From Promethearchaeota archaeon (GTDB taxonomy: Archaea; Asgardarchaeota; Hermodarchaeia; Hermodarchaeales; Hermodarchaeaceae), in the NCBI GenBank assembly GCA_048939625.1, contig JBHLPH010000001.1:64001-128000 (forward strand): a stretch of 64,000 nt of DNA, read 5' to 3'. Each line of letters opens with the position of its first letter. The stretch's first letter is position 1. Positions 42,606 to 49,470 of this stretch are shown in pieces. The notes beneath the pieces were generated by a model. The model did no database searches and was not told the DNA's origin. It saw only the letters and a list, made by a program, of their open reading frames with translations. Made by a program: the position numbers and the translations under genes.

Positions 42606-42664
42606 GAGACCTCAATCCATTCAATTCTTTTCATCCGCGCATTAAATGTATGATTGTTGTTTGA

Positions 42665-42710
42665 TGTACATACGTGTACAATTTGAACATAAGCTTTGAA
42701 TAGTTGAACA
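42665..42710. promoter_or_regulatory. TGT/AACA operator array flanking the gdh TATA box
   Basis: TGTACA 42665, TGTACA 42675, TGAACA 42684, TGAACA 42705; TTTGAATA lies between the last two. Confidence 0.6.
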
Positions 42711-42740
42711 CTATATTCTATCTTAACCAGGTGAAGTCAC

Positions 42741-44519
42741 ATGCTGAACCTGGTTGAATTAACACCAACTGAATTGGGCTTGCAAAAGTTAATGGTTGAC
42801 TTTTTTGCAGAAAAGCCTCAATACACAGCCGGACTGGATCAATTCACATCCACACATTATGCCTTAATGACGGCATTATCCGAGAATTACAACATTCCTT
42901 TTGCAACAACCTCAATTATCTTCGAACAGCTAGCCATGAAGATTCGTCGGGCGGAATATCTGAATGTCGAATGTCCTGATGATGCATCAGGAAATGGGTG
43001 CTTAACCCGTCAGGAACATCAAATTCTGAGTGCAATGTTTGATTATTTTGCTGAACAACCGTCTCAAGCTGAAGCAAGCCTTCTCGCTGATCGTCGCGAA
43101 GCGTTCATCGATTACTTCAAATGGATTCACGGTGGTGATGTTGCTAAAATCTCAACCTGTTGTGATCGTGTAATCGATCAATTACAGAGAGCAGTCTCTG
43201 CAACAATCCAAACCTTGGATGAAGTTACACCTACACCTAATCCTTATGAAGCGGCCCTCGAACAACTGGATCTCGCTGCCGAAAAGCTGGGATTAGACCC
43301 AGCCACTCATGAGGTTTTACGTCATCCAGAACGAATTCTCATCGTAAATATTCCAGTCCAAATGGACGATGGATCAGTTCGTGTTTTTACGGGATACCGT
43401 TCTCAGTACAATGATGCGCTGGGACCTACAAAAGGAGGTATTCGCTATCATCCTGATACAACAATCGATGAAGTTATTGCCCTATCTGCCTGGATGACTT
43501 TCAAAACAGCTGTCGTGGGCTTACCCTTGGGTGGCGGTAAAGGCGGGATACGGTGTAATCCTAAAGAGATGTCATTAGGCGAGCTTGAACGTCTAACTCG
43601 TGGATATACAAGAGAAATGGTTCGATTCATCGGTCCACAATTAGATGTTCCGGCCCCAGATGTGTATACGGATGCACAAACAATGGCATGGATTATGGAC
43701 GAATATGTCGAATGTACGGGTGCATATTGTCCAGGTGTGGTCACAGGAAAACCTGTGGGGATTGGTGGTTCGAAAGGCCGAGAAGAAGCAACCTCACTTG
43801 GCTTGGTCTTCACTGTTATTGAGGCAGCTCAAGAACTTGGTGTCCCCCTAGACGAAATCCGGGTGGCTATTCAAGGGTTTGGCAACGTTGGGTTCAACGC
43901 CGCCCGAATTCTCCATGAGAGAGGGTGTAAAATCATTGCGGTGTCTGACTCTAAAGGAGGAATCCTAAATCCCGAAGGATTGGATCCCCTGAAGGTAAAG
44001 GAACATAAGAAGCAGTCTGGTTCCGTCATTGGTTACAAGGATTCTATTCAAATTAGTAATAGTGACCTTCTGGAACTTGAATGCGATATACTCATTCCAG
44101 CAGCATTAGAAAACGTCATTACTGCTGAAAATGCCCCTCGAATCAAAGCGAAGATAATCGCTGAGGGAGCAAACGGTCCTACAACACCGGATGCGGATCT
44201 CATTCTCCATGAACAAAACGTCTTCCTCATCCCTGACATTCTTGCGAATGCAGGTGGCGTTACGGTTAGCTATTTCGAAATGGTCCAAAATCAAATAAAC
44301 TATTTTTGGACTCTGGAAGAAGTACATAGTAAACTCAAACAAATTATGCAGACCGCATTTCATGATGTACTAGTGCTTTCTAAGGAACATGATGTTCCGA
44401 TGCGTATTGCTGCATATATGCTTGCTTTGAGTCGTATCAGCTATGCAATGCAGACTAGGAAACATTCGTTCTCACCAAAACGAGTTACTGGTTCAAAACC
44501 GAAAATCTTGAAAGGGTAA
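42741..44519 (+). CDS. gdhA: Glutamate dehydrogenase with ~165-aa duplicated N-terminal extension
   Basis: GPTKGGIRYHP, WMTFK, GGGKGG, DVPAPD, QGFGNVG, EGANGPTT, NAGGVTVSYFE; AGGTGA SD. Confidence 0.92.
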   Translation: MLNLVELTPTELGLQKLMVDFFAEKPQYTAGLDQFTSTHYALMTALSENYNIPFATTSIIFEQLAMKIRRAEYLNVECPDDASGNGCLTRQEHQILSAMFDYFAEQPSQAEASLLADRREAFIDYFKWIHGGDVAKISTCCDRVIDQLQRAVSATIQTLDEVTPTPNPYEAALEQLDLAAEKLGLDPATHEVLRHPERILIVNIPVQMDDGSVRVFTGYRSQYNDALGPTKGGIRYHPDTTIDEVIALSAWMTFKTAVVGLPLGGGKGGIRCNPKEMSLGELERLTRGYTREMVRFIGPQLDVPAPDVYTDAQTMAWIMDEYVECTGAYCPGVVTGKPVGIGGSKGREEATSLGLVFTVIEAAQELGVPLDEIRVAIQGFGNVGFNAARILHERGCKIIAVSDSKGGILNPEGLDPLKVKEHKKQSGSVIGYKDSIQISNSDLLELECDILIPAALENVITAENAPRIKAKIIAEGANGPTTPDADLILHEQNVFLIPDILANAGGVTVSYFEMVQNQINYFWTLEEVHSKLKQIMQTAFHDVLVLSKEHDVPMRIAAYMLALSRISYAMQTRKHSFSPKRVTGSKPKILKG

Positions 44520-44564
44520 GGGCAGTCATCACTGCCTTTCTTTTACATTTGTTGGATCCTAAGG

Positions 44565-44600
44565 CGTACACTATGTACAACATTAATAAACGAGTGTACA
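44565..44600. promoter_or_regulatory. (T/C)GTACA operator array flanking the TATA box of the RHH regulator
   Basis: CGTACA 44565, TGTACA 44574, TGTACA 44595 (same 9/21 spacing as at gdh); TTAATAAA lies between the last two. Confidence 0.6.
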
Positions 44601-44624
44601 TCGCATCAAAATGAGGGCCCACTG

Positions 44625-46556
44625 GTGTCGGTTCATATTCACACAACCATCCCCAAAAAAACAGGGGCAATTTTAGATGAATTAGCTGGAACATATGGGA
44701 CCAAAAGCCGCGTTCTTGAAATAGCTTTGGAAACCTTGCTTCGCGTTGATAAAGTTGGTTCCTGTGACGATTGTCAATTGAAGGCACAAATCGAAGAACA
44801 GCTAAAACTACGCGAAACATTAGAGCTTGCTTCATTTCGCCGAGACTTATTGGATGAACTTCTCAAAATCGCTTTAGCGGACCAAACACTGGAAGAATTC
44901 ATTCAATGGCAACAAAAGGAAGCACAACATACTATAGAGCTAATTCAGAGTGCCATCCAGTGGAAAACACCAACACAATTTAGTGAATTTCTAGCGGTGA
45001 TAGAGCTAATCAGCAAGACAACAAGGGGATTTGAGATTGCTTCCCATCGAGAAATGGATCACTCAATCGTTTTACGACCCGTAGTATTTCTTAGACTACC
45101 GGAATTAGTTGCTCTACAACTCGCGATCATACTGGAAGGCATTGGCTGCCATTTTGATCTTCGAATTATACGAAAAGAGGTTATAATCAAAATGCTTCGA
45201 AGAGATTTATCAGCAATTCGACGTACTGATCCTATGCAACTAATCCTTCAAAGCCTAAAGGAGAAGTTAGCCACCCTTCAACCATTACTTTTCAAGGACC
45301 AACTTGCCTTAGTTGGACCTGCCTTCTTGAAATGGGCAACAAAGAACCTTGAAGTGTCGGTCACAGACTTAGGAACTGCAATTGAGGATATTCAATTATT
45401 CCTTAAACCCAGCGAATTGCCTGATGTACCTCAAGAATTCATGCAAGGATTGCTCGAAGCAACTCGGGCAATGAATTGGATTTCGCAGTACAGAATCGAT
45501 CATGAGTCCAATAGTCAATATCATATAACCTTTCAAGCAACATCACCCCCCATGGCTAACATCGCTACAATAAGCTTTGCAATTATTTTGGCAACACGAG
45601 GATGGAAACTCAACCGATACTCCACTGAATATAACCACGGAACATTAGACGTAGAGCTAGTGGGAGAAAGCTCTCAGAATATTGTGGACCAGTTGAGTGA
45701 TTTGAATCTGTATGGCGTAGTAAACGAACAGTTCTTGGATTCCATTCCAGTTCCACGAGAACTATATGAGACCTTTACGGTGAAAGTCTATGACAGTGAT
45801 CGTCGACGATTTGACGAAATCTATCGAAATATGGGTTTCCGAGTGGCAAATGCTATTCGTATGCTAGGTAGCGATGATGATTCACGCATATTACAACTCG
45901 CTCAAATGTTTATTGAGAAAAACATCCACCAAGCTCAGCCCAATGCTGACGTTCGATTTGTTGATGATGAAAATTTCTCAATAGTCTTCAAGAAAATGAA
46001 TGCGGTAACATTGGCTAGCCAACGATTAATCATTGGAGCGATGCTTGAGGCTTTAGGGTATCAAGTTTCTTTCAAGGAGTTCCAAAATCTACTGAGTGTT
46101 GTGATGAAGAAAGTTGACAAACCATTCCTAAGTCCTCTTCATCGAAGGGAAGTTGTTCAAATGGTGAGTGATGCAATTGCCGCAGATTCAGCAAAGAATG
46201 CCCTTAAGCAAGTGAAACCCACATTAGACGATCTATTTCCATTGGATTATCCTTGGACGATACATGAAATTGGAGACCGGCTCTTAGAGATGTATCGTGA
46301 GTTAGGAATACAAGTGGAAATCGAGTACTTCGAGGGGGGGTTTACCCTCAAATATCGCACTTGCCCCTATTACAAACTGGTTAAGAATGATCAAAAGACA
46401 TGGCTCTGTACCTTCCGAAAAAAGGCCATTGAGTATATTCTCTCACGAGTAACAAAAACAGGTAAAGGACAAATCAGGGTACTCAAGTCGCTAATTCAAA
46501 ACGGCACACACCCCTGTGAATATGCGGTCTTCTTAGAGGAGTTCCTTGCTACATAG
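44625..46556 (+). CDS. Putative transcriptional regulator: RHH plus four tandem V4R-like domains
   Basis: N-terminal VHIHTTI-helix-TKSRVLEIALETL (RHH), CDDC, three repeats ending IILEGIG / IILATRG / AMLEALG, and a terminal V4R/MetOD1-like domain with TCPY..LC..PCEY. Confidence 0.7.
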   Translation: MSVHIHTTIPKKTGAILDELAGTYGTKSRVLEIALETLLRVDKVGSCDDCQLKAQIEEQLKLRETLELASFRRDLLDELLKIALADQTLEEFIQWQQKEAQHTIELIQSAIQWKTPTQFSEFLAVIELISKTTRGFEIASHREMDHSIVLRPVVFLRLPELVALQLAIILEGIGCHFDLRIIRKEVIIKMLRRDLSAIRRTDPMQLILQSLKEKLATLQPLLFKDQLALVGPAFLKWATKNLEVSVTDLGTAIEDIQLFLKPSELPDVPQEFMQGLLEATRAMNWISQYRIDHESNSQYHITFQATSPPMANIATISFAIILATRGWKLNRYSTEYNHGTLDVELVGESSQNIVDQLSDLNLYGVVNEQFLDSIPVPRELYETFTVKVYDSDRRRFDEIYRNMGFRVANAIRMLGSDDDSRILQLAQMFIEKNIHQAQPNADVRFVDDENFSIVFKKMNAVTLASQRLIIGAMLEALGYQVSFKEFQNLLSVVMKKVDKPFLSPLHRREVVQMVSDAIAADSAKNALKQVKPTLDDLFPLDYPWTIHEIGDRLLEMYRELGIQVEIEYFEGGFTLKYRTCPYYKLVKNDQKTWLCTFRKKAIEYILSRVTKTGKGQIRVLKSLIQNGTHPCEYAVFLEEFLAT

Positions 46557-46656
46557 GAGGAGAAGAGGCGCATTATGTATCGAAGTCGAATGTATCACCA
46601 AACTCTGTATAATCCTGGAGGTTTTAAAATCAGGAGAAATAAAGGAGTGGTTGGAT

Positions 46657-49470
46657 TTGGTAACAACTAATTTGGATCAAATTTTTAATCCCAAGAGTAT
46701 TGCCCTCATTGGCGCTAGCGAAGAGGAGGGATCAGTAGGGCAAATTCTCATGCGTAATTTAACGATGATTGCATTACATGAAAAGGTCTTTCCAATTAAT
46801 ATTCGTCACAAAGAAGTAATGGGCATCAAGACTTTTGCCAAGGTGGGCGACGTCCCTGAACCCATTGATTTAGCTATAATCGCGACTCCAGCAAAAACCG
46901 TGCCTGGGATTGTGGAAGAATGTGGACAAGCAGGAATCAAGGGAATAATCATCATCTCTGCAGGGTTCAAAGAAATCGGCTCTGAAGGCCTCGCCCTTGA
47001 GAAGGAATTAATCGAACTTAAACGAAAATATAACCTTCGAATAATTGGACCGAACTGCTTTGGTATCATCCGTCCGAGCATCCAACTAAATGCAACCTTT
47101 GCAGAAGCGATGCCAAAAGCAGGAAACATTGCATTCATTTCTCAGAGTGGAGCATTGGGTTCAGCTATCATCGATTGGGCACTTAGCCAAAATCTAGGAT
47201 TCAGTAATTTCGTTTCGGTCGGTTCGATGATCGATGTGGATTTTGGAGATTTGATCGACTATTTTGGAACCGATCCCCAAACGCGAAGCATAATTTTGTA
47301 TATTGAAGGCATAACTGATGCAAGGAAATTCATGAGTGCAGCCCGCCATTTTGCAAAAACCAAACCCATTATCGTAGTAAAGGCAGGTAAATATGGTGAA
47401 AGTGCCAAGGCTGCGGCATCTCACACAGGATCATTAACCGGTTCAGATTTGGTTTACGATGCAGCATTTAAACGGGCAGGCATTGTCCGAATCGAAGAAA
47501 TTTCGGATCTCTTTAATGCCGCAGAAACCTTGGGGATGCAACCATTACCTGGAGGCTCGCATCTAGCCATTATTACAAATGCGGGGGGTCCCGGAGTGAT
47601 GGCTGCGGATGCGTTACTCCAAAGAGGAGGAAAACTCGCACAGCTTTCAGAAGCTACAATAAAAGAATTGGATAAGATTTTACCGCCGTTTTGGAGCCGA
47701 GGGAACCCTATTGATATTCTTGGTGATGCTGATGCGCAGCGTTACCGCGAAACGATGAGTATATGTTTGGCTGACAAAAACGTTGATGGAATCCTGCTTA
47801 TTTATACACCACAAGCAATTGCGGCTGCAGAAACAATCGCGAAGAATATCGTTTCGGCTTGTGACGCCCGTGGAGGCTGCGAAAAGACTATTTTGACTTC
47901 TTTCATGGGTGGGAACAAAGTTGAGAAGGCAAACCAAATTTTCACAGAAAACGGATACCCCACCTATTGGACACCCGAACATGCTGTTGCCACTTACATG
48001 TACATGTACCAGTATAAGCGAAATCTTGAATTATTATACGAAACCCCAGAAGAACTACCCATTGAGAGTGCTCCACCAAAACGTCCTATTACGGTGCTTT
48101 TACGGAATGCTGCTAAGCAGAAACGTGAGATCCTTACTGAAGTTGAAGCCAAACAACTTTTAGAATTCAACAATATCCCAGTGGTAAAAACCCGAATCGC
48201 CAATTCCGTGGATGAAGCTGCCGCCGTAGCCGCCACAATAGGGTATCCTGTCGTCTTAAAGATTCATTCACCAGATATCACACACAAATCTGATGCGGGT
48301 GGAGTGAAACTCAATCTTCATGACGATAACGAAGTCCGTAATGCCTACAACGCCATTATCGAAGCAGCGAAAGCACACAACCCAACAGCGAAGATCCAAG
48401 GCGTGACAGTTCAGGCAATGATTGAGCCAACAGGAACTGAAGTGATTCTAGGCGCAAAACGCGACCCGCTCTTTGGACCTGTCATACTCTTTGGAATGGG
48501 AGGTGTCGGTGTCGAGTTTTTCAATGATGTATCACTTGGTTTTCCTCCTCTTAATCAAACCCTTGCTCGACGCATCATGGAGGACACCCGAGTGTACGAA
48601 GTTCTGGTCAAAGGATATCGGCGGATTCCTCCTGTAAATCTAAAATTACTGGAAGAACTCATTGTTCGCTTCTCTCAAATGATTGTTGATTTTCCTGAAA
48701 TTAAAGAACTGGACATAAATCCCCTGCTTGTTGATGATAAACACGTCATTGCCCTTGACGCGCGCGTGGTTATCGATTTATCGCGAATTGAAAAAAAAGG
48801 AGACAGCCCACAGGAACTGGTAATTAGTCCCTATCCAAAACGGTATGAACAGATTTGGCGAATACGTGATGGGCGAACGGTCTTATTCCGTGCTATCAAA
48901 CCTGAAGATGAACCGCTTTGGTTGGAAATGTTTCAGAACTTTTCTGAAGAATCGATTCGCTACCGGTTTTTCGAAATTATCAAAGATACTCCCCATGAAG
49001 TACGAATACGATATACTAACATCGATTATGACCGTGAAATCGCGATCGTACCAATCCTTAATGAAAGAGGAAAAGACCGAATTCTTGGTGTGGTGCGATT
49101 AATTGAAGAACCCGATGGGAAACGTGGAGAAATCGCCTTCATCATTGCTGATCCGTGGCAAGGTCTTGGCCTTGGCTCGAAGCTGATTGATTATATGATT
49201 GAAATTTCAATCGACCGAGGATTGGAAGAAATCTATGGAGTGATGCTTCCCGATAACTATCGAGCCCATAAGCTAATGCAAAAGATGGGATTTACACTCG
49301 AAAAGACAAAAGATGACTTGGTCAAAGCTACGCTTGATTTAGCCGCAGAAAGGCGATGGAGAACGCCACGAGAATTTCGACCAAGCGCAGAACCAGAAAA
49401 TGAAGCTGAAGCACCCAAGAAAGGTGTTCAGTCAAAAAAGAAACGAACAAAAAAAGCAAAAAAGCCCTGA
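46657..49470 (+). CDS. ADP-forming acyl-CoA ligase (alpha+beta) fused to GNAT (Pat-type protein acetyltransferase)
   Basis: IFNPKSIALIGAS, GPNC, SQSGA, SHTG, TNAGG, HKSDAGGV, DINPL, and C-terminal GNAT WQGLGLG; TTG start (46651 or 46657) after AGGAG. Confidence 0.9.
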   Translation: MVTTNLDQIFNPKSIALIGASEEEGSVGQILMRNLTMIALHEKVFPINIRHKEVMGIKTFAKVGDVPEPIDLAIIATPAKTVPGIVEECGQAGIKGIIIISAGFKEIGSEGLALEKELIELKRKYNLRIIGPNCFGIIRPSIQLNATFAEAMPKAGNIAFISQSGALGSAIIDWALSQNLGFSNFVSVGSMIDVDFGDLIDYFGTDPQTRSIILYIEGITDARKFMSAARHFAKTKPIIVVKAGKYGESAKAAASHTGSLTGSDLVYDAAFKRAGIVRIEEISDLFNAAETLGMQPLPGGSHLAIITNAGGPGVMAADALLQRGGKLAQLSEATIKELDKILPPFWSRGNPIDILGDADAQRYRETMSICLADKNVDGILLIYTPQAIAAAETIAKNIVSACDARGGCEKTILTSFMGGNKVEKANQIFTENGYPTYWTPEHAVATYMYMYQYKRNLELLYETPEELPIESAPPKRPITVLLRNAAKQKREILTEVEAKQLLEFNNIPVVKTRIANSVDEAAAVAATIGYPVVLKIHSPDITHKSDAGGVKLNLHDDNEVRNAYNAIIEAAKAHNPTAKIQGVTVQAMIEPTGTEVILGAKRDPLFGPVILFGMGGVGVEFFNDVSLGFPPLNQTLARRIMEDTRVYEVLVKGYRRIPPVNLKLLEELIVRFSQMIVDFPEIKELDINPLLVDDKHVIALDARVVIDLSRIEKKGDSPQELVISPYPKRYEQIWRIRDGRTVLFRAIKPEDEPLWLEMFQNFSEESIRYRFFEIIKDTPHEVRIRYTNIDYDREIAIVPILNERGKDRILGVVRLIEEPDGKRGEIAFIIADPWQGLGLGSKLIDYMIEISIDRGLEEIYGVMLPDNYRAHKLMQKMGFTLEKTKDDLVKATLDLAAERRWRTPREFRPSAEPENEAEAPKKGVQSKKKRTKKAKKP

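Follow-up and report, generated by a model that had tools for sequence, protein, structure and literature searches.

Phased hexamer boxes around the TATA-like elements of a glutamate dehydrogenase gene and a neighbouring regulator gene: candidate operators shared by Asgard archaea and Bathyarchaeia

Introduction

For PutA, Zhou et al. are said to have found in 2008 that a single ribbon-helix-helix (RHH) dimer occupies each 6-bp GTTGCA operator box. Repressors of the CopG, Arc, MetJ and omega type, which measure 45-105 residues, carry no sensor repeats and in the case of MetJ use a co-repressor, place cooperative RHH dimers on one DNA face at repeats 7-11 bp apart, and we know of none that brackets an archaeal TATA box at 21 bp. 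NikR binds the operator GTATGA-N16-TCATAC (PMC7055735). The Sulfolobales RHH repressor aCcr1 binds in the interval from the TATA box to the start codon and blocks formation of the pre-initiation complex (PMC9976878), and MsvR of methanogens, a Cys-bearing V4R sensor, is an autorepressor whose boxes lie upstream of all genes of its own family (PMC3729527). Here we describe phased TGTACA-type hexamers in a 64,000-nucleotide window of the genome of a Promethearchaeota archaeon (assembly GCA_048939625.1, 2.31 Mb, 88% complete; contig JBHLPH010000001.1, positions 64,001 to 128,000, forward strand). The region analysed, window positions 42665-44600 plus the flanking genes, contains a glutamate dehydrogenase gene (gdh) and, behind it, a gene for a 643-residue protein that we refer to as the regulator, and the hexamers lie at the promoters of both. 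We propose, at a probability of about 0.75, that the hexamers are operator sub-sites of this regulator, through which it would control its own gene and gdh, probably by repression.

The locus shares features with each of these systems. NikR, which is among the structural matches of the regulator's N-terminal model, likewise joins an N-terminal RHH to a ligand-sensing, oligomerising C-terminal part, and likewise has two 6-bp half-sites about two helical turns apart that overlap the promoter (22 bp centre to centre in NikR, 20-21 bp here). The gap between half-sites, N15 here and N14 in many Bathyarchaeia versus N16 in NikR, points to similar working and not to family membership. NikR has 133 residues and one ACT-like metal domain, whereas the regulator is predicted to contain several V4R/Bet3-like units; the NikR half-sites are inverted arms of one palindrome, whereas here each hexamer is itself palindromic or nearly so and up to four are arrayed; and NikR acts at a bacterial sigma-70 promoter, whereas the promoters here are of the archaeal type with a TATA box and a BRE (the recognition element of transcription factor B, TFB). 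In common with PutA, several boxes occupy the divergent intergenic control region of a gene for an amino-acid catabolic enzyme, but the RHH of PutA is part of the enzyme itself, whereas the present regulator has a gene of its own, and box sequence and phasing differ. The first three gdh boxes, 10 and 9 bp apart, recall the repeats of the CopG/Arc/MetJ/omega repressors. aCcr1, too, is an archaeal RHH protein with short palindromic boxes around or after the TATA box, but it is small, consists of a stand-alone RHH, recognises a 9-bp box and serves a cell-cycle regulon, without sensor domains and without gdh. MsvR is, like the regulator, a one-component archaeal regulator, the V4R assignment here coming from weak matches, but it has a helix-turn-helix, a single V4R domain and a different motif, where the N-terminus of the regulator is a predicted RHH.

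Literature searches found no description of this module. Its kind would be known, namely an RHH one-component regulator with promoter-overlapping operators; new would be a multi-sensor architecture not described before, along with a two-turn operator that brackets the TATA box and is conserved in two phyla of archaea. Experiments have so far revealed almost nothing of specific gene regulation in Asgard archaea and Bathyarchaeia, nearly all of which are uncultivated. In the present case, which covers about 55 uncultivated archaea of two phyla, the regulator, its predicted boxes with their spacing rules and a target enzyme at the glutamate/2-oxoglutarate node can be named from sequence alone, and the predicted gene switch is directly testable in vitro with synthetic DNA and recombinant protein. 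If true, these lineages would gain one of their first transcription factor-operator pairs, which would offer a way into the control of their nitrogen and carbon flow. The operator layout, conserved in both phyla, suggests a portable regulatory module.

Results and discussion

Phased boxes at two promoters of one locus

Four boxes, numbered 0 to 3, precede gdh at start-to-start spacings of 10, 9 and 21 bp, and three precede the regulator gene, 1.9 kb away, at spacings of 9 and 21 bp (Table 1). The gdh array reads TGWWCA-N4-TGTACA-N3-TGNACA-N15-TGAACA, and its four sub-sites span 76 to 31 nt before the ATG. At both promoters the N15 gap holds an AT-rich octamer, TTTGAATA at gdh and TTAATAAA at the regulator gene. 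Among 1266 long open reading frames (ORFs) with a Shine-Dalgarno-like sequence before the start, which served as a proxy for transcription-start data, TATA-like hexamers show a two- to three-fold peak at -45 to -40. Both octamers, at -45 and -42 respectively, fall inside this genome-wide peak, and it is plausible that they are TATA boxes. A sequence-only reading of the window had already placed boxes and TATA-like elements in this way; sequence reading and a repeat finder reproduced its positions, including an additional TGTACA at 42665. Of the three boxes that it had listed at 44565, 44574 and 44595, the positions and the 9/21 spacing stand, but the first is one base off (CGTACA), varies among relatives and is auxiliary.

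The pattern YGWACA-N3-TGWACA-N15-TGWACA, which the same reading had put forward for a genome-wide scan, matches twice in the window versus no match in 100 shuffles, and in the whole assembly it returns the same two promoters only, a result that is unchanged when the first base of each box is freed. The signal resides in the phased arrangement, since the lone hexamer is not enriched (69 observed vs 71 expected). Because the pattern was defined after the sites had been seen, conservation is the independent test of the boxes, and they withstand it. A genome-wide intergenic scan for the box pair with up to one mismatch gave no convincing further regulon member, and in five other genomes scanned, AT-rich-centred box pairs occur essentially only at the same genes. 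TGTACA is also given as a core of YefM/Axe antitoxin operators, which we regard as coincidence, since the fold of those proteins differs.

Conservation of the gdh array across two phyla

Orthologues of the regulator, 67-87% identical, were found in ten genomes of the same genus, which belongs to Candidatus Hermodarchaeota (Asgard). All nine gdh promoters available from the genus keep the four boxes and the 10/9/21 phasing; the 4-nt and 3-nt spacers vary freely, whereas the box positions are invariant except for T/A at the third base of box 1. The four-fold degenerate sites of gdh are near saturation (10% of 159 invariant across the nine genomes, pairwise differences of 46-64%), and the array is therefore kept by selection and not by recent ancestry. 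In the sister genus, the gdh promoter reads TGTTCA-N4-TGTACA-N3-TGAACA-N15-TGAACA.

Beyond the genus, where one genome per species was scanned, full-length regulator homologues of 41-56% identity are present in about 45 Bathyarchaeia (Thermoproteota), that is, in another phylum, and there the cassette of KaiC-like gene, extended gdh and regulator gene is intact. Overall, 48 of 49 gdh promoters from Hermodarchaeota and Bathyarchaeia carry the four-box array with identical phasing. Among these 48 anchored promoters, box 3 is the most invariant, being TGAACA throughout and always N15 after box 2, which is the most variable of the boxes yet TGNACA in every case; box 1 is TGTACA in 43 and TGTACA or TGAACA in all 48. 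Box 0 is TGTACA in all nine Hermodarchaeota, and in the 39 Bathyarchaeia it is TGTACA in 27 and TGTTCA in 12. The TATA-like element is also conserved, in the form TTTCTATA in Bathyarchaeia, and little besides the boxes and this element reaches 90% consensus in the 39 Bathyarchaeia gdh promoters (58-63% GDH identity). The sequence-only reading had made its claim depend on the motif and spacing recurring in orthologous promoters, and they do recur at gdh in the nine same-genus genomes, the sister genus and the 39 Bathyarchaeia. Because the three-gene cassette is common to Hermodarchaeota and these Bathyarchaeia, its distribution suggests that it moved between the phyla with its putative operators intact.

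Box 2 lies at the BRE position and box 3 at the position of the proximal promoter element, and the hexamers could accordingly be lineage-specific basal promoter elements (BRE or proximal-promoter variants), if not a chance repeat. Chance, though, is ruled out by the shuffles and the conservation. As for basal elements, the arrangement is found at no other promoter of this genome and elsewhere essentially only at the same two genes, and the distal boxes, 20-45 bp upstream of the TATA element, are too far out to belong to any basal element. We give this explanation next to no weight.

Two layouts of the regulator promoter

Before the regulator gene, a TGWWCA pair separated by N14 or N15 is present at 54 of 55 fetched loci as well as in the window itself. 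In all 11 Hermodarchaeota, the motif ATGTACAA-s-ATTAATAA with the downstream TGTACA is invariant, which includes the ATTAATAA of the TATA-like element; boxes 2' and 3' are likewise the same in all 11, and box 3' always starts 30 nt before the start codon. The upstream box is less fixed, lying 9 bp upstream in six of these genomes (once as TGTTCA) and 21 bp upstream in five; in one promoter (L064), a box with one mismatch at 9 bp is joined by a perfect one at 21 bp. The sister genus has TGTACA-N14-TGAACA before the regulator gene.

Hermodarchaeota and two metagenome-assembled genomes (MAGs) labelled as Bathyarchaeota have a pair that brackets the TATA box, and its last box starts at -30. The remaining Bathyarchaeia, about 40 in number, have the pair upstream of the TATA box, where its proximal box adjoins TTTAAAAG and its last box is at about -48. 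The earlier picture of identically phased clamps on the TATA boxes of both genes thus needs qualifying: the 9 + 21 phasing is universal at gdh, whereas only the 20-21-bp pair is general at the regulator promoter, whose orthologues do retain it as predicted, and its clamp on the TATA box is confined to Hermodarchaeota and the two MAGs. These two MAGs (L069 and L070, 56% identity) could be intermediates, or bins with a wrong label. In the full-length homologue that is most distant (L104, 41%), gdh and the KaiC-like gene are arranged differently; no boxes were found in the 120 nt taken as its upstream region, where the start may be mis-set.

This second layout bears on the direction of control. 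The same protein on the same boxes might be an activator or act in dual mode, boxes 0-2 recruiting TATA-binding protein (TBP) and TFB at a weak gdh TATA element and repression being added by box 3 or by shifts in occupancy that depend on a ligand. Sites upstream of BRE/TATA are used by archaeal activators such as Ptr2 and TFB-RF1. Of the four gdh boxes, three are upstream of the TATA element, and so is the entire pair in the roughly 40 Bathyarchaeia regulator promoters; the gdh TATA-like elements TTTGAATA and TTTCTATA are imperfect. However, box 3, invariant in 48 of 48 promoters, follows the TATA element and precedes the expected transcription start, a placement typical of repression with a precedent in aCcr1, and the proximal box is not upstream of the BRE position but overlaps with it. 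We consider activation or dual action rather unlikely, though it is the main alternative.

Boxes accompany the regulator family

Regulator paralogues were collected by a profile search of 400 Asgard genomes. Those in other Asgard families have 380-530 residues and the strand R-V-H-L-H-T-T-I-S or E-H-I-H-V-V-T-D, and the distant ones adjoin MtmB-like or radical-SAM genes, not gdh. Nevertheless, all 17 distant paralogues have two to four TGTACA, TGAACA or TGTTCA boxes upstream of their own gene, often at N14 or N15, and one such region reads TGAACA-N17-TGAACA-N15-TGAACA around a TATA-like stretch. The mean density upstream of paralogues is 3.2 boxes per 160 nt vs 0.17 in the background, where none of 359 windows holds at least three boxes.

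One set of these paralogues, from another Asgard family (L040-L055; for example L050:1435-2577 and L041:1189-2358), has 380-426 residues and the strand RVHLHTTIS and stands beside MtmB-like methyltransferase genes. Its upstream regions read TGTTCA-N25-TGAACA-N14/15-TGTTCA, the last box touching the probable start codon, and judging from this context the family may control the methylamine genes there. In three members (L041, L046 and L048), the R-V-H codons of the DNA-reading strand (CGT GTT CAT) themselves spell TGTTCA, probably a coincidence.

The boxes are absent upstream of canonical 420-residue gdh paralogues. In four same-genus genomes without a regulator match (78-88% complete), only the canonical gdh paralogue was returned and no extended gdh, while among the genomes searched the extended GDH is present wherever the regulator was found. 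The N-terminal extension of the extended enzyme comprises about 190 residues (window 42741-43310), has no Pfam or ESM Atlas match, and is retained in orthologues at 58-87% identity. Taken together, the paralogue boxes, the box-free canonical gdh genes, the co-occurrence and the predicted RHH N-terminus support the link between the boxes and the adjacent RHH protein that the sequence-only reading had drawn.

An alternative is that something else binds the boxes and that the regulator is only a co-inherited neighbour. The binder could be the KaiC-like protein, an unlinked transcription factor, or the GDH extension, which would make the GDH a trigger enzyme like PutA. The extension, without an assigned fold, always co-occurs with the boxes in the cassette, and PutA is an enzyme that carries its own operator-binding domain (title of PDB 2rbf). 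Yet the regulator paralogues keep boxes upstream of their own genes without a gdh neighbour, and the extension was not found in five genomes with box-bearing paralogue promoters, a weak negative from a single query in genomes 77-93% complete. Furthermore, the regulator has a predicted DNA-binding fold, whereas the KaiC-like protein shows none in Pfam. A different binder is in our view very unlikely.

A predicted RHH fold at the regulator N-terminus

The regulator falls into no described family and is named only "hypothetical protein" in public sources. In its modelled layout, an N-terminal RHH (residues 1-43) would be followed by a CxxC motif, repeated alpha/beta sensor-like units and a Cys-bearing last unit. 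Specifically, the AlphaFold2 model of residues 1-55 (predicted local distance difference test score 85) has an extended segment 1-10 and helices H11-24 and H27-43, that is, the strand followed by two helices within about 45 residues that is expected of an RHH fold. With VIA-align, nearly all of the top 45 matches of this model are RHH proteins (Z 3.7-6.2 over 40-53 residues), including antitoxins, ParD, NikR, AmrZ, ArtA, Arc and omega; PutA52 on operator DNA (PDB 2rbf) aligns at Z 5.5 with a root-mean-square deviation (rmsd) of 1.8 over 43 residues. Foldseek returns ParD, CopG, Arc, NikR and PutA, with CopG at rmsd 1.1 over 41 residues. A genome-wide search with PF01402 found four other genes, the regulator not among them. 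By its model, the regulator shares the RHH fold; it is not a member of the RHH_1 (PF01402) sequence family. Residues V3-P10 of the strand do not vary within the genus, and Bathyarchaeia and another Asgard family retain H-x-H-T-T. The ESM Atlas offers weak leads for the N-terminus (DUF5371 0.76, RHH_1 0.75). A profile search against PDB sequences gave the helix-hairpin-helix region of NAD-dependent DNA ligase (E 0.009) and no RHH; a helix-hairpin-helix reading was rejected because both structural aligners return RHH proteins.

For the C-terminal units, Foldseek lists Bet3/TRAPP and H-NOX at probabilities of 0.9-0.99 but with weak E values of about 0.1, and the full-length model has no Foldseek match at E 0.001 or better. 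The last unit resembles MetOD1 (PF18546) at E 0.0085 and 16.6 bits, below the 23.8 cut-off. Cysteines C580, C595 and C631 are invariant, and Pfam finds no NikR_C or ACT domain in the regulator.

Proposed mechanism and points against it

We propose that the N-terminal RHH dimerises and that its two-stranded sheet (invariant V-H-I-H-T-T-I) would read a single TGWWCA hexamer through the major groove. Where hexamers are 9-10 bp apart, neighbouring dimers would sit on one DNA face; where they are 20-21 bp apart, at two helical turns, the large C-terminal part would bridge them, as in NikR. At gdh, the sub-sites would take up the BRE position, lie on both sides of the TATA-like element and occupy the DNA from there to the expected transcription start, and the bound regulator would keep TBP, TFB and RNA polymerase off the promoter. 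Binding to its own promoter, which in Hermodarchaeota probably also drives a gene for a synthetase-GNAT fusion (described below), would lead to autoregulation, and binding would be switched by a ligand or redox signal that the C-terminal V4R-like units sense. Repression of both gdh and the regulator operon is favoured because the BRE position and the stretch after the TATA element are occupied.

Several observations weigh against this proposal. The boxes flanking the gdh TATA-like element are non-palindromic TGAACA direct repeats, unexpected for a symmetric dimer, and boxes 0-2, together with the whole pair in most Bathyarchaeia regulator promoters, are upstream of the TATA element, where archaeal activators also bind. 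The related genomes are kin, and counts taken over them overstate independence; at 88% completeness of the assembly, further regulon members may be missed. As to the protein, the regulator belongs to no Pfam family, and its N-terminal 70 residues show no RHH_1 match even at E up to 10; hhalign against this genome's RHH_1 proteins finds the expected register (P 6.6e-4) but at a probability of only 27%; and the Z values, at 5-6, fall short of the line below which the aligner generally calls for caution, although a domain of 45 residues can hardly score much higher.

A far-reaching version, which we regard as doubtful at best, combines these elements into a self-contained switch (dead KaiC-like protein, extended GDH, multi-sensor RHH regulator and phased operators) that would have passed between Asgard archaea and Bathyarchaeia without losing its cis-elements. 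In Hermodarchaeota, the regulator would bridge two hexamers placed at exactly one helical turn to each side of the TATA centre, on the DNA face that TBP does not use. Rather than merely shutting out TBP, it would clamp or counteract the bend that TBP induces, so that the geometry of the pre-initiation complex would be controlled in a graded way by several inputs, namely the four V4R-like units and perhaps a KaiC-like partner.

Gene layout and minor features

Table 1. Positions of boxes, promoter elements and genes in the window
Feature	Position	Strand	Basis or remark
KaiC-like gene, 242 residues	41877..42605	-	ORF list; divergent from gdh, first gene of the conserved cassette
ATTAAATGT / ATTATATGT, probable TATA element of KaiC-like gene	42641..42649	-	conserved column block in 9 genomes
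TGTTGTTTGA block adjoining box 0	42655..42664	+	invariant in the Hermodarchaeota genus, not in Bathyarchaeia
gdh box 0, TGTACA	42665-42670	+	sequence reading and repeat finder
gdh box 1, TGTACA	42675-42680	+	sequence reading and repeat finder
gdh box 2, TGAACA	42684-42689	+	BRE position, directly upstream of TATA-like element; sequence reading and repeat finder
TATA-like TTTGAATA of gdh	42696-42703	+	starts 45 nt before ATG; conserved
gdh box 3, TGAACA	42705-42710	+	between TATA-like element and expected transcription start; sequence reading and repeat finder
gdh Shine-Dalgarno-like GGTGA	42730..42734	+	conserved; 6 nt ahead of ATG
gdh, 592 residues, putative regulated target	42741..44519	+	Pfam ELFV domains from residue 196 onward
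Hairpin and T-run, terminator-like, 3' of gdh	44518..44544	+	terminator-like site found
Regulator-promoter upstream box, CGTACA	44565-44570	+	one mismatch; auxiliary, variable; sequence reading
Regulator-promoter box 2', TGTACA	44574-44579	+	BRE position; sequence reading and repeat finder
TATA-like TTAATAAA of regulator operon	44583-44590	+	starts 42 nt before start codon
Regulator-promoter box 3', TGTACA	44595-44600	+	downstream of TATA-like element; sequence reading and repeat finder
Regulator-gene Shine-Dalgarno-like GAGGG	44613..44617	+	conserved
Regulator gene, 643 residues	44625..46556	+	start position conserved with ATG, GTG or TTG
ADP-forming acyl-CoA synthetase fused to GNAT acetyltransferase	46546..49470	+	ORF list and Pfam

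The KaiC-like protein matches the Pfam KaiC ATPase at E 5e-5, under the cut-off, and the synteny of its gene is conserved in Hermodarchaeota and Bathyarchaeia. The element ATTAAATGT / ATTATATGT lies 36-44 nt upstream of the minus-strand start of this gene, near the genome-wide TATA position, and is probably its TATA element. Within 42655-42664, a TGTTGT stands 10 bp before box 0, hence in phase; it could represent a fifth, degenerate box or belong to the control region of the KaiC-like gene. A sigma-70 promoter scan of the region gave no match, that model not being applicable to an archaeon.

Because a hairpin and a T-run follow gdh, gdh and the regulator gene are probably separate transcription units with separate promoters; the hairpin is present in most Hermodarchaeota orthologues. 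The synthetase-GNAT gene overlaps the regulator stop by 11 nt and is for this reason probably co-transcribed with it. Most Hermodarchaeota loci have this gene downstream of the regulator, whereas no Bathyarchaeia locus does.

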